Below, one piece after another: positions 9,601 to 64,000 of a DNA stretch of 64,000 bases. This stretch comes from Balanoglossus misakiensis (lineage: Eukaryota > Animalia > Hemichordata). The DNA is taken from positions 4,285,125 through 4,349,124 of the forward strand of contig CM082586.2 of assembly GCA_040954595.2 (NCBI GenBank), written 5' to 3'. The notes beneath the pieces are model-generated. The model did no database searches, was not told where the DNA came from, and saw only the letters and a list, made by a program, of their open reading frames with translations. How positions within the stretch are numbered: position 1 is the stretch's first letter; every line of letters starts with the position of its first letter. Both the position numbers and the translations under genes were made by a program.

Positions 9601-9751
9601 CTACTGGCTCTTCCAGATGACCACCGAGTTCAGCGCCTTTCTGCTGCCGCAAGACATGAAGAAAGTGGGAATCAATTTCATCATCGCGGTCGTCTTATGT
9701 GGTTTCTACGCAGTGCTGGGGCTGTGTCTGCGAGAGTTGAAAATCTTTTGA
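6665..9751 (+). CDS. Cas1p-domain (Cas1_AcylT) multi-pass O-acetyltransferase, RWA/CASD1 family, ~594 aa; exons 6665-7368, 7770-7897, 8799-9751
   Basis: GT-AG exons join in frame (1785 nt); motifs [76 protein letters not shown]; many hydrophobic helices; AATAAA at ~9897. Confidence 0.88.
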
Positions 9752-41689: not shown

Positions 41690-42479
41690 AATCCCGGGAA
41701 GATGATGTGGAAAATTTTAAAATAGTACGAATAACCAATACATTGTACATTGAAGACAGTTATCTCAATGCTAAAATAAAGTATAGATACTTTATAGAAT
41801 TTATGTGATGGGGAAGGGGCTCAAGTTATGTTTGGTGAAATATATGCTTTTAAAAAAATTATGTGAGTACATGCAACATGCATTGTTACCTTAATAAAGT
41901 TTGTTGAACACAGTACCGTAATTGATTCAATTTTTTGTGTAAGTGCAAGGTCAGTGCCCCCATAAATTTCATCCCTGTTAAGTATCAGCTGCCACACACA
42001 TACATCAGCTGTGCAGTATGAATAAAACTGTCCAGATCAGGTTCAAAATAGCATACCATTGTTGAAGAAATGGCAATGGCCACACTTTGAGGTTACTTTG
42101 CTGACCTAATGCATAGATGAGCTACCCAAATAAGTGACCAAGGTTTTTTCTTTTCTAATTTTGGATTTCATAAAGTTGGCAACTACTAGGTCACGTTATA
42201 CATTTTGTGTAAACAGCTGACAGACTATCATGTAGTCCTGACTTTAACAACGAGACATCAAAGCATATTCTGTAATATTTAAACTAATACCAAGTTATTG
42301 TTTGATGGGCGTACAAACTGAGTTTCAAGTTATGTATAGCACGCCACGAACATCTGTGACACAAACCGTAACCTTTTAATGAACGCATGCAGACCTCGCT
42401 GATTGATTATATAGCGCCCTCTATAGCACTGTTTGTCAACCACACTGATGGCAAATTTTATTTTGTTTATAACTTCATT

Positions 42480-42695
42480 GATTTTTCGACCACATCCACA
42501 AAATTTTATGAGTTTTTGTAGTTCCAAAAATAGAACATGTGTACTAAATTCAATATTAACCTGTACACCAGGTTTTGAGATATCATGTAAACAAGTACAA
42601 CCGGCAGACAGACAGGCATGCTCACACTCACAGAGAAATTGATATAACTTTTACCCCCCACGTGATCATATGATCACGTGCGTTGATGATATAGA
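42480..42695 (+). mobile_element. Interspersed element remnant ending in the perfect 22-bp palindrome CACGTGATCATATGATCACGTG (42659-42680; copy at 53902-53923)
   Basis: Short (CAGA)n tract followed by a terminal hairpin; element boundaries approximate. Confidence 0.4.
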
Positions 42696-43158
42696 GAGCG
42701 TGGGGCGCCCTCCGTGCCCATTGTGTGCACATGGGCTCATTCTCCAACGAGTGTTGAAAGACAAATGTTGCCGTGTACACCAGACAATATTCAGGTAGGC
42801 CCTGTACGTTTATTTAAATGTTTTTTGGGGTAGGAGGAAAGAGAGGGAGAGGTTAAGATTGAATGATTAATTGATTCCAAAAATAACACAATGGAAACGA
42901 CATATCTTAAAACAGTTTGAAGTATGTATTATTGATCGCGCGCAGACATGATGAAACAACACAAATTTGAATTATTCCCTAGCCCATTAGTGACGACAAT
43001 CGTCTGTGGTACTTCTTAAATACGTTATAACCATGTGCATTAAGCCTAATTCTCGTTTCTGTCAAACATCTAGCTTCTTGAAAATTACGTAAAACAATTG
43101 GTATCGGCTGTGTTCTTACATAGACGAGTTAAAGGGCAAAAGTCGCCACGGGCGTTTA

Positions 43159-43600
43159 AACCCCGGTGCGAGGTATAAAAGACCCCCCAAATCAGTGGCG
43201 AATCTTAATGCCGTTTGACTGACAACAGACAACACCAACGATCTTGGCTCTATGAAAATCGGCCCAAACAGGTCCAAGCATAAAGAATTACACCACACAA
43301 CGACAGTAGTTGGCTTTATAAACATACACAACATAAAGTTATCGACGAAAAAGTACACGAGCTTTTGAAACAACGATGATTTTGGGAGAAATCTGGTTTC
43401 AGTGCTTTTCAGAAGCGTCCCTGGGAAACAATAACCACGCCATTCAAACAGTTGTCAATCGCGTAGAGGTGTAAAGTGTTCAATTATTTTCTATGTACAT
43501 GAGAGCAATTACACAGTCATTATGCGCGACGACCACTCCCAAATAAACAACTATACAAACACACGTTAATCCGAACCCCGGTACTTTCCGCACCGGGGTT
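43159..43600. mobile_element. ~440 bp non-autonomous element with 12-bp terminal inverted repeats, TA-flanked, present only after unit 1
   Basis: TA|AACCCCGGTGCG...CGCACCGGGGTT|TA; extra hairpin AACCCCGGT/ACCGGGGTT at the right end; absent at the paralogous site 54405-54414. Confidence 0.7.
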
Positions 43601-43650
43601 TACACGCTCATGTGTAGGACTATCCATTGGTTCTGCAAGTGGAGCATTTA

Positions 43651-44763
43651 GGGACCGTTCAGTTTTTACGGCCGGGGGGGGGCGGCAAAATCCAGGGGGG
43701 GTCATCTGGTGTTTTTTTAAACGTTTAGGGGGGTGGGTTACATACTTTTGCCACCGAACTTTTGCTTTTGAGTCCACAAAATTGCAGTTTCGCGCCCTTT
43801 ATTTTACAAAATTTTCTCACACCCACACCCTTCATTCTCCGCCACATTTCGTTTTTGCTGGTTTGTCTAGTGTACCAGGGCAGGTGCTTGCCACCCCAAC
43901 CCCACCGATGATAATATTTAACAAAGTAAATACATAAAGGAGAATAATCGTTTAAACAATTTCGCATAACTGATAGTTTCGCGCTGCATCTTCTATATAC
44001 TAGAAGTTTTATAAATGATGTCATGACGAAGATGACGCCAAATCTTCTAACTTTGAGTGGAGTGGCAAAAAGTAAAATTGGTCCTCCCAAACATTGAGAT
44101 AATTTGCTTTTGAGTTCATTAAAATGGAACTTTGCGCTACATATTTTACAAAATTTTCTTATGTGGGAGGGGGACACCCCCTCCCACACCCACCCGGCAA
44201 CCCCTCCATTCTTCGCCACATTGCATTTATTCGCTGGTTTGTCTAGTGTACCAGGGCAGACTTCTTGCCACCCCACCCCGATACTTTGAGTGGAGTGGCA
44301 AAATTAAAATTTTTCTCCCTAAAATTAATTTGCTTTTGAGTTCATTTAAATGCAACTTTGAGCACCGTATTTTACAACATTTTCTTATGTGGGAGGGGGA
44401 CACCCACCCCCGCCACTTTTCTTGTTTTACCAATTCTAGCAACAATTGTATTGACTTGTCATTTTAATTTGGTCATAGATTTCTTAATTGCAACAATATA
44501 CTATTATATACTTCAATAATACTATAAGAAATTTATAATTGAGGTGTGAGGAGCCTCATTCCCTTTATTGCATACAGTGTACATAGGATCAGGACGGCGA
44601 ATGTTTTCGGCGGGGGGGGGGTGGTTATCATATTTTTGGGTCTGTCAAAGGGGGGGGGTCATCATTTTTTGGTCATGGGTGAAGGGGGGGGGGTCGGCCT
44701 GATTTTGAAAACCGATGATACAAACTTGCCGCCCCCCCCGGGCCGTAAAAACTGAACGGTCCC
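43651..44763. mobile_element. Non-autonomous PIF/Harbinger-like DNA transposon at the unit 1/2 junction
   Basis: TTA|GGGACCGTTCAGTTTTTACGGCC...GGCCGTAAAAACTGAACGGTCCC|TTA: 23-bp perfect TIR, GGG termini, TTA on both sides, internal subrepeats, no transposase ORF. Confidence 0.85.
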
Positions 44764-45559
44764 TTACTACACGAGACTGAATAAGTGGGTGTGGCACCCA
44801 TTTATTAGTGACCTTATTCACATTTAAATGTACAGCCACAATCCGAGTTTGATTAAATTTTTGGGAACATATGCCCAATGCCATAAGTAAGCATATTTAA
44901 ATGGACCAGTGATAAAATTGAAATTTTGTATAAACAACCAAACTACATGTAAATGAAACTTTTATCTTTTCCCCCCAAGATGGTCGACAACTCCAGCTCC
45001 GGAACGTTGATCGCGGATCATGCATAAATTTAAATAGCTGATATCCTGGAATCCAGACTGGAAGAGTTTGCCAAGATGGAATCCAGGGACCAGGGCAAGC
45101 CGGTCTCACTGGCCAGGAGTGTGGACATTCCCAGGGCCGTCTACAACTTCCGGTTCTTTGCGTCAACTATTCTACATGTTAAAATCAGTAAGTTGGTCCT
45201 GGTCAGTGTTATTCAAACGCTCATGTACAAAAACTTGCTGAATGAAGAGATATATATTCCAATGTATTTTTGCAGATCAACAGTCATGGAAGGCAGGGGC
45301 TGTATCAACTACACAACTCGTACGCCCGTCGGTGTGGCTGGTTTGATTAGCCCGTGGAATTTGCCGTTGTACTTGTTAACTTTCAAGATAGCTCCGTGCA
45401 TATAGCAACTGGGAATACGTGTGTTTGCAAGCCGAGCGAGATGACCTCGGTGACGGCTTGGATGCTGGGGAAAGTGTTGAATGAAGCTGGTAAGTGTTCT
45501 TGAGGGTGGTAAGTGTTAACTCGAATTTGGTATACAGTAAGTCAGCATCTGCATGATGC

Positions 45560-46257
45560 TGAAATAGACTTACTGAATGGCTCGCTTTGGTGAACCAACC
45601 ATCGCAGCACGCAACAAAGACGGTCAACAACAGGCACACCACACGTTACATGTATTTCCTTGCTTATGGAAACTTTTTAATTACTACAACTAAACATTGG
45701 TAAATATAAAATGACTGTACACTGAGGAAAAAACACAGTAAAAATAAATGACTACCTTAAATGTGACCAGGTGTGGGAAATGAAAAACTAAAGTCCAAGC
45801 TTCCGTAGCGCACGACGAACGCGACCAGCACCACGGCAGTCCCAACAGCGACGTTCAGTCCGAGTAGCGTTCTGGCACAATTCCCCGGTAGACGGCACGG
45901 CTTTCGGACGAATTCCCCATGAGGTAGCACGACTTCTGGGCGCGGTTTCCAGACCAGGACAGCATGAAACAACACGGCTTCTGGGCGCGGTTTCCAGACC
46001 AGGACAGCATGAAATACAGCACAGCTTCTGGGTGCGGTTTCCTGTGTATCAAGAAATAAGGCTTCCAAGCCGGCGAGGAACAGAACAGCTCACACGGGCA
46101 AGTCCAAATTAGTAGCTACGACGCAACACAACGTGCGGGCTTTTTATATGGGGAAAATAATGAATGCACCACACCTGGTCAAGCAAATATTCAAATTACG
46201 AAATCAAGCGAAAACACACCTGGTCACAAAACAACAGCAAACTTCTCCTACGTAACA
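45560..46257 (-). mobile_element. Probable solo LTR (Gypsy-like) in intron 3 of ALDH8A1 copy 2
   Basis: Absent from unit 1; minus strand reads TGTTACG...TATTTCA; TATAAAAAG (~46140) and ATTAAA (~45677) on minus strand; internal ~46-bp tandem repeats; degenerate 4-bp target duplication (empty site GTGC). Confidence 0.6.
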
Positions 46258-48090
46258 GTTTTGTATTATGTATATTATAATATACCACCATATTCTGTGG
46301 TCTGTGGTGACGCAAGAAAGTGATCGTGACCAGACTCAATGTTTTCGCCATCAGGTTTACCTGCTGGAGTTGTGAATATAGTGTTTGGAACGGGACCTCG
46401 CGCTGGCAGTGCCCTGGTCAAACATCCTGATGTGCCACTTGTGTCCTTCACTGGAAGTACACCCACTGCTGAGAAAATCAGACAAGACTGTGCGCCTTAC
46501 TGTAAAAAGTTATCACTAGAGGTCAGTCGACCGGTCATTAGGGATTCGGAATAGTGTATTTAGGGACTAATGCCTTTGTCAAGTCCATAAATATTGCCGT
46601 AATAAGACAATTTTCAGTTTGTATTAAAGCTGTCAGATTGATGCTCATAATGATCGACGGACACATTCTGTTTGACTCTCAGCTCGGTGGGAAGAACCCA
46701 TGCATTGTCTTCGATGATGTGAATTTAGACGAGTGTGTCGCCACCAGCGTGAAGTCGAGCTTCGCCAACCAGGGCGAGATCTGTCTCTGCAGTAGTAGGA
46801 TCTTTGTACAGAAGGGTGTCTATGATGCTTTTCTGGAGAAATTTGTCGAAGAGGCCAGGTCAGTGTGCCAGGACTACTAGGATTATTTTCAGTGCATCAA
46901 TTTCGATGAGGAATGCATCACCACCACCATGGTTTGGTCCAAATCCATAATGGCAGACCTGGCACTTTGTTCTTCTCTTGCAGGAAAATCAAAGTCGGCG
47001 TACCGTACGAGGACGCCACGAATATGGGAGCTCTTGTCAGCAAGGAACATCTGGCAAAGGTCAAAGGCTATGCCAGTCTTGCAAGGGAAGACGGCGGAAC
47101 GGTCCATTGTGGCGATGGGGTGGATCCTGAACCGGACTTGCCAGCAAAACACAGAGAGATAAGTTCAACACTTTAGTATTCACTGTGATTGTCTGATATG
47201 AAACTCTTCCCACTCCTGACCCGAAATCTGATGGAACCATGTAATTAAGTTATTTCTTGGTGATGCAAAGATTGTTCATCTTCCTGTCTTTTATTAGCAC
47301 TTTCCTAGTTTGTCCTTTGGACATGTCTTCAAAAACTGTCCCAGATTCATATAACTTTCTTAGAATTCGAAATAAGACAATTTATACAAACTAAGAAATG
47401 AGAAAAAATGTTCCTTAAACTTTTGACTGCAATTGTGAAAAAACAAATCAGTCTTTCTGGGTAAGACATACACTTTTTCAAGTACATGTAAATCATTCTA
47501 AATGCGTCCTTTTATTTAAAGATGCAAAAGAAACAAACACAGATCTGGGTGATACAAATGTCAAATTCATATAATGAGCTTTCCATTGATGTGTTGGTCT
47601 TTGGTTGGGGCTAGAATAATTTGGGAGTTTATTATCCAAATACACATTTATAAGTTGGTTAAAATTGATGTTTCTTTAGAGACAATGGAACGCATGCACA
47701 GATGTCCAGCAATGACCAGCTTTCTCATTTTGGCAATTTCACCCCCCAAAAAATCATAAGATAAAAATTCCGGCTAATAAAACGGTATCAATCAAGTGTT
47801 TATGCATATCGCCTGACTATCGACCTGCTTGAAGTCCTGATCAATCTGATATGCCAGTCCACTGCAATAACCTTTACCATCTAGTTGAATACCATGATTG
47901 ATCAATAAATAACGGAGTGTCTAATCAGTGTGTCGGGGCACTGGCTATTGACAGGCGCCTCACAATAGCCTCGGCCTGAACTTTGTACTCATCGCAGCCA
48001 TTAACAAAAGCTGTAACCTCTGCGAGCTCGCGTCTGTAAATTTCCAAAATCAATAAGTTTCTCTCACGCTGCAGTTACTTTGTATCAACA

Positions 48091-50793
48091 ATGACTACCG
48101 CTATTCCGAAACCAAATCTGTTAGATGTTCTGGAGAAATTCGGTGAAGGCTTGCTGTACTGTCTGGCTTGCTCGAAGTTACTGAAGAATCCAAAATGTCT
48201 GCCGTGCCTTCATACATTTTGTGAAGGCTGTCTGTCACCAGCGGAAGAGAAACAAGAAAATCTGGAGTGTAAGGCCTGCCGTAAACAGCACGTAATTCCT
48301 GATAATGGCATAAAGGAGTTTAAAGACAACCTCTTTATGAGGTCTCTGCTACAAGAAGTTGCAAAGCTGGAGAGGCAACTCAGTGATCGTGCCGATGACT
48401 TGGGTAACTGCCGATGTGAGGTGGGCACCCATGCTAAGCATATCTGCATACGATGTCGACAGAAGTGTTGTGATGTGTGCGTCGTTCAACACCGAGATGA
48501 TCACTCGCATCTGGTGGTTACTTTAGCAGAGAGGAAGGTGGACAACAGATCAGCGTTGTCTTGCACCATTCACAAGGAAGAGGAGGTGAAATTATTTCGT
48601 GTCATAGACCAGATGCCAGTGTGTGTCTTCTGTGCTGTCACCAAGCATGACAAGAATTTCCTCAAAGATCTGACTGATTCCCTGGTAAAGGAAAAGGCGG
48701 AAGACTTGGTACGTGAGGTACGTAAATTAGAGGGCAAGGCCCACGAAGCTGAGAGGAGTGGAAACGACATCGCAGCCAACAGCGAAATGGTAGAAAATAC
48801 CAACAGGCGAGAAAAAGAGAAGCTGAAAGAGAAAGTCCGGGAGATTAGAAAAGTAATCGCAAGGGAAGAGCAGAGACTGGCAGATGTACTTACAGAAGCT
48901 AACGACACAAAAGTGAAAGATAATCAAACGAGGATGGCGCAACTGGAGATGACGTACGGGTACATCTCAGTCCTTTGCACTTATGTAGAGAGTATGCTGC
49001 AGCAAGGGAAAGAAGGTGGAATTGAACTGCTGAAAAAAAGAGCCAGCCTGATGACCTGCGTGAAACAGGTGCGTGACACAGATACTCAGCCAGGAATTGA
49101 TAAAGTACCATCCACGTTTCAACCCAATAATAACGTGAGTGTCCCTGGGGTGCTTGGTCAACTGACACATACGAAGAAATCAGCATTCAACAGGTTGAAT
49201 CTCGCAACACTCATGAACATTGTTGTACAAATACTTCTTGTTGTGGTGGTATGTCGGGTGTGGGATCACGGTCTGCCATGGCTTGCCGCAACCGGACCAA
49301 ACTATGCAATACACGGTTCTGATGTAGTTGTCACAAACACTGGGGATGTCAAAGTTCCCAGAGGTGACTACACCAGTTTGCTGGTGAAAACCAAAGACAA
49401 CCAGAGCGATCTGGTGGTACCATGTCACAAATTAATTGCCCAACAAAGGAATTATGACCAGCATGTTCTGTCAAAACTCCCAGTGGTTGACAACAACAAT
49501 GGAACATGCAGTGTCACTGTACCGGGACAAGTAATTGGTAACTATAAAGTAACCATGGCGATTGGAAACCAAGCCATACAGGGTTCGCCAGTTGATATTT
49601 CTGTTATAATGGATGGATTCATGAAGTACGCAACCAGTGGCTCAGCCATAATTGTCACAAACACTGATGTTGTCAAAGTTCCCAGAGGTGACTACACCAG
49701 TTTGCTGGTGAAAACCAAAGACAACCAGAGCGATCTGGTGGTACCATGTCACAAATTAATTGCCCAACAAAGGAATTACGACCAGCATGTTCTGACAAAA
49801 CTCCCAGTGGTTGACAACAACAATGGAACATGCAGTGTCATCCTGCAGGGAATAATTGTTGGAAACTATACAGTAACCATAGCGATTGGAAACCAGGTCA
49901 TAAAAGGGTCGCCACTTAGTATATCAATCACACAACTCTGGAAAACTATAGGAAGTGCTGGGTCTTCATATGGACAATTCAACTTCCCAGTTGGCTTGGC
50001 TGTAACTAAAGATTCAGATTTGGTAATTGCTGATAGAGACAACAATAGATTACAAGTAGTAAAAATAGATGGAAATGTCAAGAAAAGTTTGTCATTTTAC
50101 AAAGAAGGAAAATTAACAGAAATTCGGCCATTTGATTTAGCAATATCAGATGATAATAAATATTTTATAACAGATCGTATTAGTAGAGAAATAGTTGTAA
50201 GTGATGACAGTGGGGAAATTTTACAAACTTTTGGCAAGAGCAGACTCATGTACCCTCGCTGTATTGCCATTAGCCCAATCACTGGCAGTGTTTATGTAAC
50301 AGAATGGGACGGGAAGACTGGTGACACAGGCACAGACACAAGCAGGCATGGTTTATGGAAATACACACAGGATGGCGAGTACATTACATCAATCGGAAGT
50401 TATGGAAAGGGCCATGGCCAGTTTAATTCACCTTACTTTATGGCATTTGACAGATTTGGATACTTGTTCGTATGTGATTTTAATAACGCGCGTGTCCAGG
50501 TGTTTGATTCAAATGATCAGTTTGTACGTGCATTTGGCACCTACGGAGATGGAAACGGACAGTGCAAACGTCCAACCGGAATAGTCGTTAGTGAGGATGA
50601 CTTTGTGTATGTAAGTGATTATCCTGCTGGCATTATTAACAAATTTGACACCAATGGCAACTTTATCAGCCGTATTGACGATGACAGTGATGGGTTAAAA
50701 TTTCCACATGGGCTTGCTCTGACAAAGGATGAACCTAATCGTCTTGCTGTTGTTGACTTCAAAGGTAATTGTATCAAACTATTTGTTGTTTAG
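48091..50793 (+). CDS. Nested intronless TRIM-NHL E3 ligase copy 2, 900 aa (RING, 2 B-boxes, coiled coil, predicted TM helix, 2 filamin/Ig repeats, ~6 NHL repeats)
   Basis: RING CLAC...[10 protein letters not shown]...CKAC; hydrophobic [18 protein letters not shown]; filamin motif [10 protein letters not shown]...GNQAIQGSP twice; NHL repeats GQFNFPVGLAV, GQFNSPYFMAFD, LKFPHGLAL; uninterrupted ORF. Confidence 0.92.
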   Translation: MTTAIPKPNLLDVLEKFGEGLLYCLACSKLLKNPKCLPCLHTFCEGCLSPAEEKQENLECKACRKQHVIPDNGIKEFKDNLFMRSLLQEVAKLERQLSDRADDLGNCRCEVGTHAKHICIRCRQKCCDVCVVQHRDDHSHLVVTLAERKVDNRSALSCTIHKEEEVKLFRVIDQMPVCVFCAVTKHDKNFLKDLTDSLVKEKAEDLVREVRKLEGKAHEAERSGNDIAANSEMVENTNRREKEKLKEKVREIRKVIAREEQRLADVLTEANDTKVKDNQTRMAQLEMTYGYISVLCTYVESMLQQGKEGGIELLKKRASLMTCVKQVRDTDTQPGIDKVPSTFQPNNNVSVPGVLGQLTHTKKSAFNRLNLATLMNIVVQILLVVVVCRVWDHGLPWLAATGPNYAIHGSDVVVTNTGDVKVPRGDYTSLLVKTKDNQSDLVVPCHKLIAQQRNYDQHVLSKLPVVDNNNGTCSVTVPGQVIGNYKVTMAIGNQAIQGSPVDISVIMDGFMKYATSGSAIIVTNTDVVKVPRGDYTSLLVKTKDNQSDLVVPCHKLIAQQRNYDQHVLTKLPVVDNNNGTCSVILQGIIVGNYTVTIAIGNQVIKGSPLSISITQLWKTIGSAGSSYGQFNFPVGLAVTKDSDLVIADRDNNRLQVVKIDGNVKKSLSFYKEGKLTEIRPFDLAISDDNKYFITDRISREIVVSDDSGEILQTFGKSRLMYPRCIAISPITGSVYVTEWDGKTGDTGTDTSRHGLWKYTQDGEYITSIGSYGKGHGQFNSPYFMAFDRFGYLFVCDFNNARVQVFDSNDQFVRAFGTYGDGNGQCKRPTGIVVSEDDFVYVSDYPAGIINKFDTNGNFISRIDDDSDGLKFPHGLALTKDEPNRLAVVDFKGNCIKLFVV

Positions 50794-53700
50794 TGGATAC
50801 AATTTGTTGCAAAAAAGAGTCATGTAGTTTTGAGTAAGATGGGTTTCGATTGGTGGGACCGTGACTCTGGTATGTCCAGTACATTATGTCGATTCTAATT
50901 TCTTTTTTTATACAGATGGAACTCATTACAAATAGATTAATTTTAGTCGGCTATTAATTTAATTTGAACGTTGAAGTCTAATGTTCACTCTTGAATTACA
51001 TAGTGAAAGTTTGCGACAATTTCCAGACCTACACCAAAATTTAATGTTATAATTCAGCTTTTGTGTAGTATTTGTATACCTACCTGTCCAGTGAAATTGA
51101 AACGTTTAATATATAATAAGCATTACTTTGTATTGCGAGATGCATTAAGTTAAAATTTTGTAAGAATTTGACTTTTGTGTAAAAAAGTATTAATCACCGC
51201 TTTTGCATAAACAGTGTCAAGTAAATTCTCTAGTGTTAATTAGAATCAGTTGACAACACGGAATCAACAACTTTATGTTTGTGACATTTTAAAATTTGAG
51301 CTGTGAGCCTCATCCACATATATATCAATGCTTGATGTATAGCAAGTTCATTCTTTTTCAACTTTTATCAGAGTTTTACTTTATGAGCGACTTTATCATT
51401 CTGCGTAACTATATCTTTGCTGTAGATACAAAGTTGAATTTGTTGTAGTGACAATAGGTGATATATAACACTTGTCTTAAATCTGTAGGCTGATTATATC
51501 TCAATAAATAAGAATATATTCCAGCAAAATATGTATTTGTAGTGTATGCGGTACAATAGGATGAATGTTGTGACTGTATAAAGTGTATTGGTAAAACACA
51601 TACAATCCCACAAACTTTGTGTTACAAGTGTTATTGGATAATTAAAGGTCTTTGATTAATGTGTTAGAAATGTTATCCAATGGTGTAATGTGTGAAGACA
51701 AAGATTCGCCAACTTAATTATAAGTTCATAATAGTGAAATAGGCATTGGTGACTTTTACACACAGCATGTGAAAGGTGTTGATGCCAAAACTATCCTCAG
51801 GAGAAAACCAGCAAAGCTATCACGGACCCACAGCCAACCCCCAAAAAAGCAAAAACTATCCAGTCTCCCTCATGTGCAAATTAATGCATTTTACATTTCC
51901 TTTTCACAAGCCCCCTTTTCAGTGAAACATCCATCTTGAATCAGATTGCAAGTTGTGTTAATAATGTGTGTGGTTTGGTTTGTCCACCATTTCTTTCCTA
52001 CAGGGATATTTCATGAAGCCAACAGTGGTGACGGGATTGTCCGACAATTCACGCTGTATGCAAGAAGAGATCTTTGGTCCAGTGGTCTGCATCACACCAT
52101 TTGACAATGAGAAAGAGGTCAGTCTGTCTGGGTCACGGACTTTTTATCTAGGGTTAGTGAGTGGGTGGGCCCCAAACAGACCTGGACTGCACAACTATCT
52201 TGTTTAGTTGGATGATGTATTGTTGCCATTTTAATGATAAAATTTGGAAACTATTTGCCATATCAGAGTAGTGACTAAAGGTACTTGATTTTGTAGGCAG
52301 TTCTGTGTTGTACAAACAATTATCATATCTCTTGATACCTGCATGTGTGTGTAGATGGGTGCATTGGTATTTGCATGACTAGGCAGATGAGCGCTCATGT
52401 AACCTTTGACCCTTTCTACCTGTCAGGTGATCGAGAGGGCCAATGGTGTCAAGTATGGCTTGTCGGCCTGTGTTTGGACAAAAGACGTCGGAAAGACCCA
52501 CCGAGTGGCACAGAAACTACATGCGAGTATTATCCACTGGCTGTTTATTTATCATGACTTTGTCAGCATTTGACTGATTCATCAACATAAAAACGTGCAA
52601 ATGGTATTTCAAAATTATAAAGCATATTTCGCAAGGGAGGATTTTGACCGCGAGTTGTCATTTTTCGCCAAAACTTGTTTCCTCCAGTGAGTGTCAGAAT
52701 GAGACACTGTGAATAACCAAGGAGTGTGTGAGATTTAAATGCATTTATTGTCCCTAACAGAAACTTTGGCATATTTTTTTATATCCAGGCCGGAACTGTA
52801 TGGGCCAACTGTTGGTTTATCCGGGATCTAAATATGCCATTCGGTGGAATGAAGTCCTCGGGAATAGGCCGGGAAGGAGGCAAAGATTCCGTGGACTTCT
52901 ACACAGAAGAAAAGGTCATCTGCATCAAGATGTAGAATCCCGGGAAGATGATGTGGAAAATTTTAAAATAGTACAGATAACCAATACATTGTACATTGAA
53001 GACAGTTACCTCAATGTTAAAATAAAGTATAGATACTGAATTAAAATTATGTGATGGGATAGGGGTTCAAGTTATGTTTGGTGAAATATATGGTTTTTAA
53101 AAAAAAATGTGAGTACATGCAACATGCATTGTTACCTTAATAAAGTTTGTTGAACACAGTACCGTAATTGATTCAATTTTTTGTGTAAGTGCAAGGTCAG
53201 TGCCCCCATAAATTTCATCCCTGTTAAGTATCAGCTGCCACACACATACATCAGCTGTGCAGTATGAATAAAACTGTCCAGATCAGGTTCAAAATAGCAT
53301 ACCATTGTTGAAGAAATGGCAATGGCCACAATTTGAGGTCACTTTGCTGACCTAATGCATAGATGAACTACCCAAATAAGTGACCAAGGTTTTTTCTTTT
53401 TTAATTTTGGATTTCTCAAAGTTGGCAACTACTAGGTCACGTGATACATTTTGTGTAAACAGCTGACAGACTATCATGTAGTCCTGACTTTAACAACGAG
53501 ACATCAAAGCATATTCTGTAATATTTAAACTAATACCAAGTTATTGTTTGATGGGCGTACAAACTGAGTTTCAAGTTATGTATAGCACGCCACGAACATC
53601 TGTGACACAAACCGTAGCATTTTTATGAATGCATGCAGGCCTCGCTGATTGATTATATAGCGCCCTCTATAGCACTGTTTGTCAATTACACTGATGGCAA

Positions 53701-54462
53701 ATTTTATTTTGTTTATAACTTCATTGATTTTTCGACCACAACCATAAAATTTTATGAGATTTTGTCGTTCCAAACATAGAACCTGTGTACGAAATTTAAT
53801 ATTAACCTGTACAGCAGGTCTTGAAATATCATGTAAACAAGTATAACCGACAGACAGACAGGCATGCTCACACTCGGAGAAAATGATATAACTTTTACCC
53901 CCACGTGATCATATGATCACGTGCGTTGATGATATAGAGAGCGTGGGGCGCCCTCCGTGCCCATTGTGTGCACATGGGCTCATTCTCCAACGAGTGTTGA
54001 AAGACAAATGTTGCCGTGTACACCAGACAATATTCAGGTAGGCCCTGTACGTTTCTTTAAATGTTTTTTGGGGTAGGAGGAAAGAGAGGGAGAGGTTAAG
54101 ATTGAATGATTAATTGATTCCCGATCTAAAAATAACAATTGAAACGACATATCTTAAAACAGTTTGAAGTATGTATTATTGATCGCGTGCAGATATGATG
54201 AAACAAGACAATTTTGAATTATTCCCTAGCCCATTAGTGACGACAATCGTCTGTGGTACTTCTTAAATACGTTATAACCATGTGCATTAAGCCTAATTCT
54301 CGTTTCTGTCAAACATCTAGCTTCTTGAAACTTACGTAAGACAAATTGGTATCGGCTGTGTTCTTACATAGACGAGTTAAAGGGCAAAAGTCGCCACGGG
54401 CGTTTAATGAAATACACGCTCATGTGTAGGACTATCCATTGGTTCTGCAAGTGGAGCATTTA

Positions 54463-55416
54463 GGGACCGTTCAGTTTTTACGGCCGGGGGGGGCGGCAAA
54501 ATCCAGGGGGGGTCACTTAAATTTTGAAGTCCAAAAGGGGGGGTCATCTGGTGTTTTTTTAAACGTTTAGGGGGGTGGGTCACATACTTTTGCCACCGAA
54601 CTTTTGCTTTTGAGTCCACAAAATTGCAGTTTCGCGCCCTTTATTTTACAAAATTTTCTAATGTGGGAGGAGGACACCCCCTCCCACACCCACACCCTTC
54701 ATTCTCCGCCACATTTCGTTTTTGCTGGTTTGTCTAGTGTACCAGGGCAGGTGCTTGCCACCCCAACCCCACCGATGATAATATTTAACAAAGTAAATAC
54801 ATAAAGGAGAAGAGAATAATCGTTTAAACAATTTCGCATAACTGATAGTTTCGCGCTGCATCTTCTATATACTAGAAGTTTTAAAAATGATGTCATGACG
54901 AAGATGACGCCAAATCTTCTTACTTTGAGTGGAGTGGCAAAAAGTAAAATTGGTCCTCCCAAACATTGAGATAATTTGCTTTTGAGTTCATTTAAATGCA
55001 ACTTTGAGCACCGTATTGTACAAAATTTTCTTATGTGGGAGGGAGACACCCACCCCCGCCACTTTTCTTGTTTTACCAATTCTAGCAACAATTGTATTGA
55101 CTTGTCATTTTAATTTGGTCATAGATTTCTTAATTGCAACAATATACTATTATATACTTCAATAATACTATAAAAAAAGTTATAATTGAGGTGTGAGGAG
55201 CCTCATTCCCTTTATTGCATACAGTATACATAGGATCAGGACGGCTAATGTTTTCGGCGTGGGGGGGGGGGGTTATCATATTTTTGGGTCTGTCAAAGGG
55301 AGGTCATCATTTTTTGGTCATGGGTGAATGGGGGGGGGGGGGTCGGCCTGATTTTGAAAACCGATGACACAAACTTGCCGCCCCCCCCCCCCGGGCCGTA
55401 AAAACTGAACGGTCCC
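54463..55416. mobile_element. Second copy of the PIF/Harbinger-like element, at the unit 2/3 junction
   Basis: Same TIRs and TTA flanks (54460-54462, 55417-55419); one internal subrepeat fewer than the first copy. Confidence 0.85.
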
Positions 55417-56213
55417 TTACTACAGGAGACTGAATAAGTGGGTGTGGCACCCATTTATTAGTGACCTTATTCACATTTAAATGTACAGCCACAATCCGAG
55501 TTTGATTAAATTTTGGGAACATATGCCCAATGGCATAAGTAAGCATATTTAAATGGACCAGTGATAAGTTTTGTATAAACAACAAAACTACATGTAAATG
55601 AAACTTTTATTTTTCCCCCCAAGATGGTCGACAACTCCAGCTCCGGAACGTTGATCGCGGATCATGCATAAAATAGCTGATATCCTGGAATCCAGACTGG
55701 AAGAGTTTGCCAAGATGGACTCCAGGGACCAGGGCAAGCCGGTCTCACTGGCCAGGAGTGTGGATATTCCCAGGGCCGTCTACAACTTCCGGTTCTTTGC
55801 GTCAACTACTAGTATTCTACATGTTAAAATCAGTAAGTGGGTCCTTGTCAGTAATATTCAAACGCTCATGTACATGACAAAAACTTGCTGAATGAAGATA
55901 TATATTATTCCAATGTATTTTTGCAGATCAACAGTCATGGAAGACAGGGGTTGTATCAACTACACAACTCGTACGCCCGTCGGTGTGGCTGGTTTGATTA
56001 GCCCGTGGAATTTGCCGTTGTACTTGTTAACTTTCAAGATAGCTCCGTGCATATAGCAACCGGGAATACGTGTACGCGTGTGTGTGTAAAGATGAGCGAG
56101 ATGACCTCGGTGACAGCATGGATGCTGGTGTTGAATGAAGCTGGTAAGTGTTCTTGATGGTGGTAAGTGTTAATTCGAATTTGGTATACAGTAAGTCAGC
56201 ATCTGCATGATGC

Positions 56214-56913
56214 TGAAATAGACTTACTGAATGGCTCGCTTTGGTGAACCTACCAGCGCAGCACGCAACAAAGACGGTCAACAACAGGCACACCACACGT
56301 TATTTCCTTGCTTATGGAAACTTTTTAATTACTACAACTAAACATTGGTAAATATAAAATGACTGTACACTGAGGAAAAAACACAGTAAAAATAAATGAC
56401 TACCTTAAATGTGACCAGGTGTGGGAAATGAAAAACTAAAGTCCAAGCTTCCGTAGCGCACGACGAACGCGACCAGCACCACGGCAGTCCCAACAGCGAC
56501 GTTCAGTCCGAGTAGCGTTCTGGCACAATTCCCCGGTAGACGGCACGGCTTTCGGACGAATTCCCCATGAGGTAGCACGACTTCTGGGCGCGGTTTCCAG
56601 ACCAGGACAGCATGAAACAACACGGCTTCTGGGCGCGGTTTCCAGACCAGGACAGCATGAAATACAGCACAGCTTCTGGGGGCGGTTTCCTGCAGACCAG
56701 TGTATCAGGAAATAAGGCTTCCAAGCCGGCGAGGAACAGAACAGCTCACACGGGCAAGTCCAAATTAGTAGCTACGCTGCAACACAACGTGCGGGCTTTT
56801 TATATGGGGAAAATAATGAATGCACCACACCTGGTCAAGCAAATATTCAAATTACGAAATCAAGCGAAAACACACCTGGTCACAAAACAACAGCAAACTT
56901 CTCCTACGTAACA
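56214..56913 (-). mobile_element. Probable solo LTR, duplicated copy in unit 3
   Basis: Same sequence and site as 45560-46257; flanks ATGC / GTGC. Confidence 0.6.
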
Positions 56914-58708
56914 GTGCTGTATTATGTATATTATTATATACCACCATATTCTGTGGGGATGGTGACACAAGAAAGTGTTCGTGACCAGACTCAATGTTTT
57001 CACCATCAGGTTTACCAGCTGGAGTTGTGAATATAGTGTTTGGAACGGGACCTCGCGCTGGCAGTGCCCTGGTCAAACACCCTGATGTGCCACTTGTGTC
57101 CTTCACTGGAAGTACACCCACTGCTGAGAAAATCAGACAAGACTGTGCGCCTTACTGTAAAAAGTTATCATTAGAGGTCAGTCAATCGGTCATTATGAAC
57201 TCGGAATAGTGTATTTAGTGACTAATGCCTTTGTGAAATCCTTAAATATTGCCGTAATAAGACAATTTTCAGTCTGTCAGATTGATGCACATAATGATCG
57301 ACGGACACATTCTGTTTGACTCTCAGCTCGGTGGAAAGAACCCTTGCATCATATTCGATGATGTGAATTTAGACGAGTGTGTCGCCACCAGTGTGAAGTC
57401 GAGCTTCGCCAACCAGGGCGAGATCTGTCTCTGCAGTAGTAGGATCTTTGTACAGAAGGGTGTCTATGATGCTTTTCTGGAGAAATTTGTCGAAGAGGCC
57501 AGGTCAGTGTGCCAGGACTACTAGGATTCTTTTCAGTGCATCGGTTTCGATGTTGAATGCATCACCACCACCATGGTTTGGTCCAAATCCATAATGGCAG
57601 ACCTGGCATTTTGTTCTTCTCTTGCAGGAAAATCAAAGTCGGCGTACCGTACGAGGACGCCACGAATATGGGAGCTCTTGTCAGCAAAGAACATCTAGCA
57701 AAGGTCAAAGGCTATGCCAGTCTTGCAAGGGAAGACGGCGGAACGGTCCATTGTGGCGATGGGGTGGATCCTGAACCGGACTTGCCAGCGAAACACAGAG
57801 GGGTAAGTTTAACACTTTAGTATTCACTGTGATTGTCTGATATGAAACTCTTCCCACTCCTGACCCGAAATCTGATGGAACCATGTAATTAAGTTATTTC
57901 TTGGTGATGCAAAGATTGTTCATCTTCCTGTCTTTTATTAGCATTTTCCTAGTTTGTCCTTTGGACATGTCTTCAAAAACTGTCCCAGATTCATATAACT
58001 TTCTTAGAATTCGAAATAAGACAATTTATACAAACTAAGAAATGAGAAAAATGTTCCTTAAACTTTTGACTGCAATTGTGAAAAAACAAATCAGTCTTTC
58101 TGGGTAAGACATACACTTTTTCAAGTACATGTAAATCATTCTAAATGCGTCCTTTTATTTAAAGATGCAAAAGAAACAAACACAGATTTGGGAGATACAA
58201 ATGTCAAATTCATATAATGAGCTTTCCATTGATGTGTTGGTCTTTGGTTGGGGCTAGAATAATTTGGGAGTTTATTATCCAAATACACATTTATAAGTTG
58301 GTTAAAATTGATGTTTCTTTAGAGACAATGGAACGCATGCACAGATGTCCAGCAATGACCAGCTTTCTCATTTTGGCAATTTCACCCCCCAAAAAATCAT
58401 TAGATAAAAATTCCGGCTAATAAAACGGTATCAATCAAGTGTTTATGCATATCGCCTGACTATCGACCTGCTTGAAGTCCTGATCAATCTGATATGCCAG
58501 TCCACTGCAATAACCTTTACCATCTAGTTGAATACCATGATTGATCAATAAATAACGGAGTGTCTAATCAGTGTGTCGGGGCACTGGCTATTGACAGGCG
58601 CCTCACAATAGCCTCGGCCCGAACTTTGTACTCATCGCAGCCATTAACAAAAGCTGTAACCTCTACGAGCTCGCGTCTGTAAATTTCCAAAATCAATTTG
58701 TATCAACA

Positions 58709-61378
58709 ATGACTACCGCTATTCCGAAACCAAATCTGTTAGATGTTCTGGAGAAAGTTGGTGAAGGCTCACTGTACTGTCTGGCTTGCTCGAAGTTACT
58801 GAAGAATCCAAAATGTCTGCCGTGCCTTCATACATTTTGTGAAGGCTGTCTGATACCAGCGGACGAGAAACAAGAAAATCTGGTGTGTAAGGCCTGCGGT
58901 AAACAGCACGTAATTCCTGATAATGGCATAAAGGAGTTTAAAGATAACCCCTTTATGAAGTCTCTGCTACAAGAAGTTGCAAAGCTGGAGAAGCAACTCA
59001 GTGATCGTGCCGATGACTTGGGTAACTGCCGATGTGAGATGGGCACCCATGCTAAGCATATCTGCATAGGATGTCCACAGAAGTGTTGTGATGTGTGCGT
59101 CGTTCAACACCGAGATGATCACTCGCATCTGGTGGTTACTTTAGCAGAGAGGAAGGTGGACAACAGATCAGCGTTGTCTTGCACCATTCACAAGGAAGAG
59201 GAGGTGAAATTATTTCGTGTCATAGACCAGATGCCAGTGTGTGTCTTCTGTGCTGTCACCAAGCATGACAAGAATTTCCTCAAAGATCTGACTGATTCCC
59301 TGGTAAAGGAAAAGGCGGAAGACTTGGTACGTGAGGTACGTAAATTAGAGGGCAAGGCCCACGAAGCTGAGAGGAGTGGAAACGACATCGCAGCCAACAG
59401 CGAAATGGTAGAAAATACCAACAGGCGAGAAAAAGAGAAGCTGAAAGAGAAAGTCCGGGAGATTAGAAAAGTAATCGCAAGGGAAGAGCAGAGACTGGCA
59501 GATGTACTTACAGAAGCTAACGACACAAAAGTGAAAGATAATCAAACGAGGATGGCGCAACTGGAGATGACGTACGGGTACATCTCAGTCCTTTGCACTT
59601 ATGTAGAGAGTATGCTGCAGCAAGGGAAAGAAGGTGGAATTGAACTGCTGAAAAAAAGAGCCAGCCTGATGACCTGCGTGAAACAGGTGCGTGACACAGA
59701 TACTCAGCCAGGAATTGATAAAGTACCATCCACGTTTCAACCCAATAATAACGTGAGTGTCCCTGGGGTGCTTGGTCAACTGACACATACGAAGAAATCA
59801 GCATTCAACAGGTTGAATCTCGCAACACTCATGAACATTGTTGTACAAATACTTCTTGTTGTGGTGGTATGTCGGGTGTGGGATCACGGTCTGCCATGGC
59901 TTGCCGCAACCGGACCAAACTATGCAATACACGGTTCTGATGTAGTTGTCACAAACACTGGGGATGTCAAAGTTCCCAGAGGTGACTACACCAGTTTGCT
60001 GGTGAAAACCAAAGACAACCAGAGCGATCTGGTGGTACCATGTCACAAATTAATTGCCCAACAAAGGAATTATGACCAGCATGTTCTGTCAAAACTCCCA
60101 GTGGTTGACAACAACAATGGAACATGCAGTGTCACTGTACCGGGACAAGTAATTGGTAACTATAAAGTAACCATGGCGATTGGAAACCAAGCCATACAGG
60201 GTTCGCCAGTTGATATTTCTGTTATAATGGATGGATTCATGAAGTACGCAACCAGTGGCTCAGCCATAATTGTCACAAACACTGATGTTGTCAAAGTTCC
60301 CAGAGGTGACTACACCAGTTTGCTGGTGAAAACCAAAGACAACCAGAGCGATCTGGTGGTACCATGTCACAAATTAATTGCCCAACAAAGGAATTACGAC
60401 CAGCATGTTCTGACAAAACTCCCAGTGGTTGACAACAACGATGGAACATGCAGTGTCATCCTGCAGGGAATAATTGTTGGAAACTATAAAGTAACCATAG
60501 CGATTGGAAACCAGGCCATAAAAGGGTCGCCACTTAGTATATCAATCACACAACTCTGGAAAACTATAGGAAGTGCTGGGTCTTCATATGGACAATTCCA
60601 ATCCCCATATGGCTTGGCTGTAACAAAAGACTCAGATTTGGTAATTGCTGATACACACAACAATAGATTACAAGTAGTAAAAATAGATGGAAATGTCAAG
60701 AAAAGTTTGTCATTTTACAAAGACGAAAAATTAACAGAAATTTGGCCACATGATTTAGCAATATCAGATGATAATAAATATTTTATAACAGATCGTATTA
60801 ATAGAGAAATAGTTGTAAGTGATGACAGTGGGGAAATTTTACAAACTTTTGGCAAGAACAGACTCATGTACCCTCGCTGTATTGTCATTAGCCCAATCAC
60901 TGGCAGTGTTTATGTATCAGACGTCGGCATGCATGTTTTATGGAAATACACACAGGATGGCAAGTACATTAAATCAATCGGAAGTTATGGAAAGGGCCAT
61001 GGCCAGTTTGATTCACCTTTATTCATGGCATTTGACAGATTTGGAAACTTGTTCGTATGTGATATTTATAACGCGCGTGTCCAGGTGTTTGATTCAAATG
61101 ATCAGTTTGTACGTGCATTTGGCACCTACAGAGATGGAAACGGACAGTTAAAATATCCAATTGGAATAGTCGTTAGTGAGGATGACTTTGTGTATGTAAG
61201 TGATTCTTATGCTGTCACTGTTAACAAATTTGACACCAATGGCAACTTTATCAGCCGTATTGACGATGACAGTGATGGGTTAAAATTTCCACGTGGGCTT
61301 GCTCTGATAAAGGATGAACCTAATCGTCTTGCTGTTGTTGACTCCACAGGTAATTGTATCAAAGTATTTGTTGTATAG
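58709..61378 (+). CDS. Nested intronless TRIM-NHL E3 ligase copy 3, 889 aa, same architecture as copy 2
   Basis: Uninterrupted ORF collinear with copy 2; differences cluster in the RING region and the NHL repeats. Confidence 0.92.
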   Translation: MTTAIPKPNLLDVLEKVGEGSLYCLACSKLLKNPKCLPCLHTFCEGCLIPADEKQENLVCKACGKQHVIPDNGIKEFKDNPFMKSLLQEVAKLEKQLSDRADDLGNCRCEMGTHAKHICIGCPQKCCDVCVVQHRDDHSHLVVTLAERKVDNRSALSCTIHKEEEVKLFRVIDQMPVCVFCAVTKHDKNFLKDLTDSLVKEKAEDLVREVRKLEGKAHEAERSGNDIAANSEMVENTNRREKEKLKEKVREIRKVIAREEQRLADVLTEANDTKVKDNQTRMAQLEMTYGYISVLCTYVESMLQQGKEGGIELLKKRASLMTCVKQVRDTDTQPGIDKVPSTFQPNNNVSVPGVLGQLTHTKKSAFNRLNLATLMNIVVQILLVVVVCRVWDHGLPWLAATGPNYAIHGSDVVVTNTGDVKVPRGDYTSLLVKTKDNQSDLVVPCHKLIAQQRNYDQHVLSKLPVVDNNNGTCSVTVPGQVIGNYKVTMAIGNQAIQGSPVDISVIMDGFMKYATSGSAIIVTNTDVVKVPRGDYTSLLVKTKDNQSDLVVPCHKLIAQQRNYDQHVLTKLPVVDNNDGTCSVILQGIIVGNYKVTIAIGNQAIKGSPLSISITQLWKTIGSAGSSYGQFQSPYGLAVTKDSDLVIADTHNNRLQVVKIDGNVKKSLSFYKDEKLTEIWPHDLAISDDNKYFITDRINREIVVSDDSGEILQTFGKNRLMYPRCIVISPITGSVYVSDVGMHVLWKYTQDGKYIKSIGSYGKGHGQFDSPLFMAFDRFGNLFVCDIYNARVQVFDSNDQFVRAFGTYRDGNGQLKYPIGIVVSEDDFVYVSDSYAVTVNKFDTNGNFISRIDDDSDGLKFPRGLALIKDEPNRLAVVDSTGNCIKVFVV

Positions 61379-64000
61379 TGGATACAATTTGTTGCAAAAA
61401 AGAGTCATGTAGTTTTGAGTAAGATGGGTTTCGATTGGTGGGACCGTGACTCTGGTATGTCCAGTACATTATGTCGATTCTAATTTCTTTTTATACAGAT
61501 GGAACTCATTACAAATAGATTAATTTTAGTCAGCTATTAATTTTATTTGAACTTTGAAGTCTAATGTTCACTCTTGAATTACATATTGAATGTTTGTGAC
61601 AATTTCCAGACCTACACCAAAATTTAATGTTCTAATCCAGCTTTTGTGTAGTATTTGTATACCCCCTACCTGTCCAGTGAAATTGAAACGTTTAATATAT
61701 AATAAGCATTACTTTGTATTGCGAGATGCATTGTTGTTAAAAGTTAAAATTTTGTAAGAATTTGACTTTTGTGTAAATAAGTATTAATCACCGCTTTTGC
61801 ATAAACAGTGTCAAGTAAATACTCTAGTGTTAATTAAAATCAGTTGACAACACAGAATTAACAACTTTATGTTCGTGACATTTTAAAATTTGAGCTGTGA
61901 GCCTCATCCACATATATATCAATGCTTGATGTATAGCAAGTTCATTCTTTTTCAACTTTTATCAGAGTTTTACTTTATGAGCGACTTTATCATTCTGCGT
62001 AACTATAGCTTTGCTGTAGATACAAAGTTGAATTTGTTGTAGTGACAATAGGTGATATATAACACTTGTCTTAAATCTGTAGGCTGATTATATCTCAATA
62101 AATAAGAATATATTCCAGCAAAATATGTATTTGTAGTGTATGCGGTACAATAGGATGAATTTTGTGACTGTATAAAGTGTATTGGTATAACACATACAAT
62201 CCCACAAACTTTGTGTTACAAATGTTATTGGATAATTAAAGGTCTTTGATTAATGTGTGAGAAATGTTATCCAATGGTGTAATGTGTGAAGACAAAGATT
62301 CTCCAACTTAATTATAAGTTCATAGTAGTGAAATAGGCATTGGTGACTTTTACACACAGCATGTGAAAGGTGTTGATGCCAAAACTATCCTCAGGAGAAA
62401 ACCAGCAAAGCTATCACGGACCCACAGCCAACCCCCAAAACAGCAATAACTATCCAGTCTCCCTCATGTGCAAATTAGTGCTTTTTACATTTCCTTTTCA
62501 CAAGCCCCCTTTTCAGTGAAACATCCATCTTGAATCAGATTGCAAGTTGTGTTAATAATGTGTGTGGTTTGGTTTGTCCAATATTTCTTTCCTACAGGGA
62601 TATTTCATGAAGCCAACAGTGGTGACGGGATTGTCCGACAATTCACGCTGTATGCAAGAAGAGATCTTTGGTCCAGTGGTCTGCATTACACCGTTTGACA
62701 ATGAGAAAGAGGTCAGTCTGTCTGGGTCATTGACTTTTTATCTAGGGTTAGTGAGTGGGTGGACCCCAAACTGGCCTGGACTGCACAACTATCTTGTTTA
62801 GTTGGATGATGTATTGTTGCCATTTTAATGATAAAATTTGGAAACTATTTGCCATATCAGAGTAGTGACTAAAGGTACTTGATTTTGTAGGCAGTTCTGT
62901 GTTGTACAAACAATTATCATATCTCTTGATACCTGCATGTGTGTGTAGATGGGTGCATTGGTATTTGCATGACTAGGCAGATGAGCGCTCATGTAACCTT
63001 TGACCCTTTCTACCTGTCAGGTGATCGAGAGGGCCAATGGTGTCAAGTATGGCCTGTCGGCCTGTGTTTGGACAAGTGACGTCGGAAAGACTCACCGAGT
63101 GGCACAGAAACTACATGTGAGTATTATTCACTGGCTGTTTATTTATCATGCTTCATCAACATAAAAACGTGCAAATGGTATTTAAATTATAAGCATATTT
63201 CGCAAGAGAGGATTTTGACCGCGAGTTGCCATTTTTCGCCAAGACGTGTTTCCTACATCAAGTGTCGGTATGAGACACTGTGAATAACCAAGGAGTGTGT
63301 GAGATTTAAATGCACTTATTGTCCCTAAAAGTAACTGGCATATTTTTTTATATCCAGGCCGGAACTGTATGGGCCAACTGTTGGTTTATCCGGGATCTGA
63401 ATATGCCATTCGGTGGAATGAAGTCCTCGGGAGTAGGCCGGGAAGGAGGCAAAGATTCCGTGGACTTCTACACAGAAGAAAAGGTCATCTGCATCAAGAT
63501 GTACAATCATGGGAAGATGATGTGGAAAATTTTAAAATAGTACAGATAACCAATTCATTGTACATTGAAGACAGTTACTTCAACGTTAAAATAAAGTATA
63601 GATACTGAATTAAAATTATGTGATGGGATAGGGGTTCAAGTTATGTTTGGTGAAATATATGGTTTTTAAAAAATAATGTGAGTACATGTAACATGCATTG
63701 TTACCTTAATAAAGTTTGTTGAACACACTACCGTTATTAATTCAATTTTTTCATGTAAGTGTAAGGTCAGTGTCCCATAAATTTCATCCCTGTTAACTAC
63801 CAGCTGCCACACATGCACATCAGCTGTGCACTATGAATAAAACTGTCCAGATAAGGTTCAAAATAGCATACCATTGTTAAAGAAATGGCAATGGCCACAC
63901 TTTGAGGTCACTTTGCTGACCTAATGCATAGATGAGCTACCCAAATAAGTGACCTAGGTTGTTTTGGATTTCACAAAGTTGGCAACTACTGGGTCACGTT

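Follow-up and report, generated by a model that had tools for sequence, protein, structure and literature searches.

A tandem array of TRIM-NHL genes in Balanoglossus misakiensis with a predicted membrane helix and a propeller contact face that very probably evolves under positive selection

The stretch of DNA analysed here (the window) is 64,000 nucleotides long and comes from the hemichordate Balanoglossus misakiensis (GenBank assembly GCA_040954595.2, contig CM082586.2, positions 4,285,125 to 4,349,124 of the forward strand). Within it, self-BLAST and alignment identify a unit of about 10.5 kb that is present three times from position 34575 onward. Every unit has aldehyde dehydrogenase exons and, inside one intron and on the same strand, a single-exon open reading frame for a TRIM protein that ends in a six-bladed NHL propeller. 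The primary concern of this study is the difference between the two intact TRIM genes, copies 2 and 3, which is concentrated on one face of the propeller, and a hydrophobic helix in the middle of the protein (coordinates in Table 1). The propeller of copy 1 is broken by a 99-nt deletion, followed by a stretch of 504 nt that has been lost and whose place is taken by T-rich DNA, and both joints are found in a single contig of X1. X1 and X2 are sequencing runs of one sample, possibly the source of the window DNA. Copy 1 remains in frame at 39336-39462, where the T-rich inserted DNA gives it a new Phe-rich hydrophobic tail, and it is either a pseudogene or a decoy.

The RING ligands C24, C27, C39, H41, C44, C47, C60, and C63 are invariant through the alignment of relatives, while Pfam RING matches are weak. 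B-box 1 retains its ligands. B-box 2 retains C158, H161, C178, C181, and H186, without the CxxC and the last His found in relatives; part of its second zinc site (48560-48660, residues 158-189) is lost compared with all aligned relatives. The coiled coil that follows the B-boxes is a helix of residues 196-304 in the structure model, and the two filamin domains and NHL have Pfam matches above the cut-off. The propeller is modelled as a confident six-bladed NHL, with a predicted local distance difference test (pLDDT) score mostly above 90, and Foldseek gives template modelling scores (by target) of 0.90-0.93 to TRIM2 NHL, with LIN41 (6fq3) as the top match. The closest relatives of the gene are hemichordate proteins with 35-40% identity.

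An initial annotation of this DNA had counted about 34 substitutions and an 11-amino acid loop indel between the NHL regions of copies 2 and 3. Over residues 617-900, amino acid replacements are found at 39 of the 273 aligned codons (33 of 266 when the blade-3 loop is set aside) and there is an 11-codon indel, in good agreement with that count; all of the quoted motifs are present as well, with DHI derived from the copy 1 remnant. The annotation had also placed the differences repeatedly in the loops of the ligand-binding face. In zebrafish LIN41, the RNA contacts given in the available text of PMC5908797 are C563, R564, R581, S582, R611, K628, D629, Y658, W660, R676, R707, F722, R752, and R770. 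Placed by hand along an alignment of human TRIM71, these contacts correspond to P-2, P-1, P+1, D+1, and D+2 of the blade motifs and define a mask of 30 sites in copy 2: P-2, P-1, and P+1 around prolines 633, 680, 722, 781, 828, and 872, and D+1 and D+2 after aspartates 648, 695, 738, 796, 843, and 889. The faces of the propeller were assigned from strand order and alignment rather than from coordinates. Copies 2 and 3 differ at 20 of the 30 mask sites versus 19 of the 243 other positions (Fisher P=9e-13), or at 18/28 versus 15/238 without the blade-3 loop, so that the claim of recurrence at the ligand face is borne out. Shifting the mask by 1-12 residues leaves only 0-9 differing sites, and the selected sites are rich in Arg/Lys and aromatic residues.

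The proportion of nonsynonymous differences (pN) at the mask is 0.38-0.41, which is 14-15 times the flank rate (flank divergence 0.028), while the rest of the NHL region is at 1.1-1.3 times that rate; the proportion of synonymous differences (pS) in the NHL region is 0.028-0.033. Two or three base changes within one codon are found at 8/30 contact sites but only 1/243 others. Over the whole NHL region, the ratio of nonsynonymous to synonymous rates (dN/dS, or omega) is 2.2-2.8 (P=0.01-0.05). In a pairwise codon model with fixed site classes, omega is 24.8 at the mask and 1.19 elsewhere, with a likelihood ratio test (LRT) statistic of 50.4 against a mask omega of 1 (P=1e-12); a comparison of M2a with M1a, which uses no mask, has an LRT of 19.9 (P=5e-5) and places 12% of sites at omega of approximately 27. 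The reading frame has been kept: 19 of 25 indels in the flanks are not multiples of three, and in 1,307 unconverted coding sites 4.2 frameshifting indels are expected and none is seen (P=0.014; the broken copy 1 is not counted). Positive selection thus very probably acts on the contact face of the propeller. The annotation had proposed diversifying selection there, and an omega of about 25 at the mask, the mask-free result, and variability of the same face in further sequences all support it. Adenine-targeted diversification of the type caused by diversity-generating retroelements was rejected, as the changes, judged by eye, take in all four bases.

If selection were simply relaxed on redundant duplicates, then the loops would merely tolerate change, and the omega near 1 outside the face and the broken copy 1 would be consistent with this. 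However, relaxed selection caps omega at 1, the contact sites exceed the neutral rate many times over, and the equally exposed loops of the bottom face differ between copies 2 and 3 at only 3/54 positions. A related technical explanation, collapse of the central part of the gene during assembly, could draw on the fact that no contig spans a whole copy, but the NHL forms of copies 1, 2, and 3 are each found in contigs. This explanation in its two forms is very improbable, being contradicted for the propeller, while collapse of the stalk stays a minor possibility.

In addition to these three NHL forms, the contigs of X1 and X2 contain pieces of one further version, and at least four NHL versions are present in one sample. 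Read by hand, the further version has the changes V634L, F681I (X1 only), S780I, Y782F, Y844F, and P845T, a blade-3 loop shorter by 2 residues, and the loss of one codon near 826. Of the 11 new changes that lie outside the loop, 6 are at the 19 mask sites among the 137 codons it covers (P=0.001). The pieces, which are unphased, could come from either an allele or a paralog. At the protein level, all six pairs among four Glandiceps paralogs differ at 13-17 of the 30 mask sites versus 21-33 of the 250 others, and nine Saccoglossus paralogs have a mean of 0.71 at the mask versus 0.16-0.24 in bottom loops, an average that leaves out P0010 and P0013, which have rearranged propellers. Thirteen vertebrate TRIM2 proteins have the reverse pattern (0.005 at the mask versus 0.11-0.13 in bottom loops), the face being their most conserved part, although this control consists of orthologs and the hemichordate sets of paralogs.

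The initial annotation set the variable propeller against an invariant stalk, with no amino acid difference between copies 2 and 3 over about 450 residues. The identity itself is confirmed (residues 124-577, 454 codons), but its value as a biological contrast is not. There are 0 differences in 1,363 nt of stalk DNA, synonymous sites included, while the units elsewhere differ at 2.8% of sites; about 10 synonymous differences would be expected at the flank rate (P=4e-5). Constraint is therefore ruled out as the cause. The stalk is also not unusually constrained, because copy 1 differs there from both other copies by 18 nonsynonymous and 8 synonymous differences, with dN/dS of 0.7-0.8. Recent gene conversion is the simplest cause and in all likelihood the correct one. 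The annotation had allowed that a conversion tract might explain the whole contrast: it accounts for the stalk, but not for the divergence of the propellers. On the N-terminal side of the tract, 13 residues of the RING/B-box 1 region (residues 1-123) differ between copies 2 and 3, which the annotation had omitted. Gene conversion is evidently active near the stalk, as exchange between filamin 1 and filamin 2 shows: in filamin 1, 5 of the 7 listed differences between copies 1 and 2 give copy 2 the filamin-2 codon. Units 2 and 3 share a second identical tract of 380 nt (45653-46032 and 56301-56680), within an insertion that is not in unit 1 and that contains a 45-nt tandem repeat.

With conversion active at the locus, the differences on the top face could be a patchwork of small conversions from more distant paralogs instead of point mutations under selection. 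More distant paralogs occur in the same sequencing runs as loose ends, and the concentration of multi-base codon changes at the face would also be expected from such patches. However, donor patches should carry synonymous changes, yet pS in the NHL region equals the flank rate, and conversion would need to land repeatedly on targets of two or three codons in six blades, which itself implies selection. This origin is considered improbable.

A hydrophobic run that was missed in the initial annotation is present between the coiled coil and filamin 1 in copies 1, 2, and 3, and about 510 residues of filamin and NHL lie beyond it. Its hydropathy over 19 residues is 2.41-2.49 in the three window copies, in which the 15 residues before it include 3-4 Lys or Arg and no Asp or Glu. 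These features suggest, with fair confidence, that it is a true membrane span. The helix is not in any of the first 16 relatives aligned. In a HMMER search with residues 231-520, the Ptychodera protein P0200 (XP_070531764.1) was first among 55 matches; it has a hydrophobic run at the same place, the same filamin type, and 39% overall identity. Among 117 RING-bearing proteins, which include many near-identical vertebrate TRIM2/3, hydropathy is at least 2.2 in only two, P0200 (2.53) and P0236 from Saccoglossus (2.72), both at the same place. A search with residues 300-620 of P0200 returned only P0200 itself and five distant matches, and Atlas searches returned ordinary TRIM-NHL/filamin clusters only, which added nothing on the helix.

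In a tree built without the insert columns (14 rows, LG+G4), copy 2 and P0200 are sisters (100/100), while P0236 clusters with helix-less Saccoglossus proteins (100/100). A single origin of the helix was rejected by the approximately unbiased test on the same rows and model (p=3e-79), and a quick tree of 42 rows, with no TRIM71 included, has the same grouping. Because copy 2 and P0200 are sisters, P0236 lies elsewhere, and one clade is rejected, the helix is old in the lineage of the window copies and was probably gained separately in Saccoglossus. In P0236, the end of the helix (residues 395-420) is an A-x-x-A|Q-P-like stretch that resembles a signal-peptidase site, and its ectodomain might be shed.

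Two alternatives bear on what the helix and the variable face are for. The proteins could be cytosolic restriction factors, with the helix only tethering them to a membrane surface or not inserted at all, and with the propeller binding viral RNA or protein as the SPRY domain of TRIM5 does. The correspondence of the selected sites, with their basic and aromatic residues, to RNA-contact positions of LIN41 is consistent with this, as are the many helix-less relatives that are nevertheless variable at the same face and the lack of clear lumenal marks. It is less easily reconciled with a segment of about 20-23 residues that has no central Pro and a basic N-terminal side, or with retention of the hydrophobic run in both P0200, despite its distance, and P0236; a single-span pattern would separate RING from propeller. 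A cytosolic factor is rather unlikely, but deserves some weight as the main rival. The alternative that the proteins are allorecognition or gamete-recognition receptors, their variants being self markers or readers of them, would suit an outward-facing variable surface on a predicted membrane anchor and the number of NHL versions in one sample. The variation seen, however, is between paralogs, helix-less members of the family show the same pattern and could not read a cell surface, and copy turnover, with copy 1 broken, is more in keeping with an arms race than with a self locus that is stable, so that this possibility appears slight.

The reading preferred here, tentatively and somewhat short of probable, is that these genes encode young tandem TRIM-NHL ligases with a predicted single span and a selected propeller face, which would act as receptor-ligases for a fast-changing foreign ligand. 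That pathogens drive the selection on the face is modestly favored. The segment at residues 369-391 would be a type II signal-anchor helix on whose cytosolic side lie RING, B-boxes, and coiled coil; with one span after the cytosolic RING, the two filamins would hold the propeller on the other side, either lumenal or extracellular. By analogy with TRIM5 and TRIM21, the propellers of a dimer would bind a repetitive ligand, for example a virion or microbial surface, the ligand would cluster the dimers, and clustering would activate the RINGs, leading to ubiquitin signalling or to uptake and degradation. Selection would maintain the differences between the binding faces, and gene conversion would keep the scaffold uniform. 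We infer the ligand, the clustering, and the immune role from these analogies and from the finTRIM pattern in the available text of PMC3137616. An immune-receptor role is plausible, with the predicted transmembrane helix as its possible structural basis. More broadly, and with greater reserve, hemichordates may have made the RNA-binding TRIM-NHL scaffold into a TRIM5-like family of variable sensors, in which a helix inserted at least twice, independently, flips the hypervariable propeller out and yields surface or endosomal immune receptors with a TRIM-ligase tail.

Several points weigh against this reading. The mask was drawn from LIN41 after the finding had been read and was thus not blind; the codon-model dN/dS values come from one sequence pair, copies 2 and 3; and omega outside the face is 1.2-1.5, so that at this depth there is little sign of purifying selection. 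The structure model has a helix at 371-392, but at low confidence (pLDDT in the 40s), and the segment contains Asn376, Gln380, and, in copies 2 and 3, Arg389. Glycosylation sequons and a pair of filamin cysteines were considered as markers of the lumen and rejected: copy 2 has 4 sequons before the helix and 5 after it, with none in NHL and no clear excess on the C-terminal side, and the Cys pair is not tied to the helix, being present in helix-less P0010 and P0013 and absent from P0236. Helix-less members of the family, presumably cytosolic, vary at the same face, and the hypervariable face by itself therefore does not imply an outward receptor. The text and one supplementary PDF of a paper on antiviral challenge in Saccoglossus (PMC10210618) mention no TRIM or NHL gene.

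The usual view holds that TRIM-NHL proteins regulate development and are conserved, and that rapid evolution among antiviral TRIMs is a matter of the SPRY domain, as in the available text of PMC2533329. Titles and abstract openings in the literature, with most subscription papers outside this scope, contain nothing on positive selection in NHL or on a hemichordate TRIM-NHL expansion, and no TRIM in which an internal membrane helix precedes filamin-NHL. The arms-race signature here falls on the NHL surface with which LIN41 binds RNA, and the invertebrate deuterostome family that carries it has enough members to be tested. If the predicted topology is true, then a TRIM ligase would be joined across the membrane to a variable ectodomain, a receptor layout that was not found described and that seems to have had two origins. 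For studies of ligand binding, copies 2 and 3 form a ready-made matched pair, with nearly the same scaffold but different binding faces.

The dehydrogenase that hosts the TRIM genes is taken to be ALDH8A1-like from its motifs, and its first exon is present in unit 1 only. Across 34057-64000, the broken TRIM sits in the complete dehydrogenase copy and the intact TRIMs sit in damaged duplicates, which suggests that the array is kept for the sake of the TRIM genes. A fragment of a high-copy repeat with very high contig depth (47940-47980) lies about 115 nt 5' of the TRIM start. In copies 1 and 2, a pyrimidine tract and CAG resembling a splice acceptor (48055-48075) is 16 nt upstream of the ATG; a 25-nt deletion has removed it from copy 3 (compare 58690-58700), which may affect expression of that copy. 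Elsewhere in the window are a multi-exon gene on the minus strand (12900-30600) that presumably resembles the HECT ligase UBR5/hyd, and a multi-exon membrane-protein gene on the plus strand (6578-9748) that we take to resemble CASD1-type O-acetyltransferases.

Table 1. Features of the TRIM-NHL array, in positions of the window
Feature	Positions	Strand	Description	Basis
Host aldehyde dehydrogenase gene	34057..41689	+	Apparently complete in unit 1 only	Exon frames
Tandem unit 1	34575..44762	+	About 10.2 kb; aldehyde dehydrogenase exons, TRIM copy 1 in intron	Self-BLAST, alignment, exon frames
Tandem unit 2	44763..55415	+	Dehydrogenase exons lacking exon 1 and carrying a frame break; intact TRIM copy 2	Self-BLAST, alignment, exon frames
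Tandem unit 3	55416..64000	+	Runs off the window; partial dehydrogenase exons; intact TRIM copy 3	Self-BLAST, alignment, exon frames
TRIM copy 1	37324..39462	+	RING, B-boxes, coiled coil, hydrophobic helix, two filamins, about one NHL blade	
TRIM copy 2	48091..50793	+	Intact, 900 amino acids, single coding exon	
TRIM copy 3	58709..61378	+	Intact, 889 amino acids, single coding exon	
C3HC4 RING finger, copy 2	48160..48279	+	Residues 24-63	Eight of eight ligands present
Predicted transmembrane helix, copy 1	38425..38493	+	Trp replaces Arg389	
Predicted transmembrane helix, copy 2	49195..49263	+	Residues 369-391; basic residues N-terminal to it	Hydropathy
Predicted transmembrane helix, copy 3	59813..59881	+		Hydropathy, alignment
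Two tandem filamin domains, copy 2	49325..49925	+	DNA about 90% identical; exchange of letters between the two	
Identical tract (the "invariant stalk"), copy 2	48459..49821	+	1,363 nt; likely gene conversion	
Partner of identical tract, copy 3	59077..60439	+	1,363 nt	
Six-bladed NHL propeller, copy 2	49939..50790	+	Residues 617-900	Structure model, Foldseek
NHL propeller, copy 3	60557..61375	+	Blade-3 loop lacks 11 residues; the short form is also seen in contigs of X1 and X2	
Blade-3 top loop	50299..50344	+	Three lengths: copy 2; 2 residues shorter in contig variant; 11 shorter in copy 3	

The window proteins share RING, two B-boxes, coiled coil, filamin, and a six-bladed NHL with the TRIM-NHL proteins TRIM2, TRIM3, TRIM71/LIN-41, Thin, Brat, and Mei-P26, but differ in their tandem copies, hypervariable contact face, two filamins, and predicted internal membrane helix. 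Known TRIM-NHL members are soluble, with RING and NHL in one compartment, whereas in the window copies a membrane span between these two is predicted from hydropathy and from relatives. In the available text of PMC2533329, these members are in a conserved "group 1" with 1:1 human-mouse orthologs; in that of PMC3845644, TRIM2 has two selected sites, both outside its domains, and both reviews treat non-SPRY TRIMs as conserved. The RNA binders LIN-41/TRIM71 have conserved basic contact residues, while copies 2 and 3 have different residues at two thirds of these positions. The hemichordate RefSeq proteins named TRIM2/45/71-like (Saccoglossus, Ptychodera, and Glandiceps), the relatives of 35-40% identity noted above, have the same blades and the same variable face; these names are automatic annotations, most of the proteins are without the helix, and no study of their function was found. 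P0200 shares helix and filamin type with the window copies but has one filamin and a longer linker.

TRIM5, TRIM22, and the fish finTRIM/btr genes are clustered, expanding TRIMs with positive selection on C-terminal ligand-face loops (available text of PMC3137616). The window genes resemble them in selected ligand-face loops, from one pair, and in tandem gain and loss, with one of three copies broken, but carry an NHL propeller instead of B30.2/SPRY and a predicted membrane span. TRIM13/RFP2 and TRIM59 have RING and B-box domains plus a coiled coil followed by a hydrophobic anchor, as predicted for the window copies, which add filamin and NHL where TRIM13 and TRIM59 show, apart from the hydrophobic region, no obvious domain. 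Mycobacterial PknD and the teneurins have an N-terminal cytosolic part, one span, and an outward NHL-type propeller. Chains 1rwi and 8r51, relevant to this comparison, are among the matches of the window protein; PknD and the teneurins are a kinase and adhesion proteins, not TRIM ligases, and the likeness is of layout only. The PA-TM-RING ligases (GRAIL/RNF128 and RNF13) also have a membrane-anchored RING and a lumenal recognition domain, and in the available text of PMC4021871 are described as the only human transmembrane RING proteins with a lumenal domain, but they carry a signal peptide and are oriented the opposite way. Variable beta-propellers have been described in other invertebrate immune expansions, though not in TRIM-NHL, in the available text of PMC8195603. 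The window proteins are thus TRIM-NHL by domain content and, by analogy, likely TRIM5-type sensors by evolution, outside both the SPRY and the TRIM13/59 groups.

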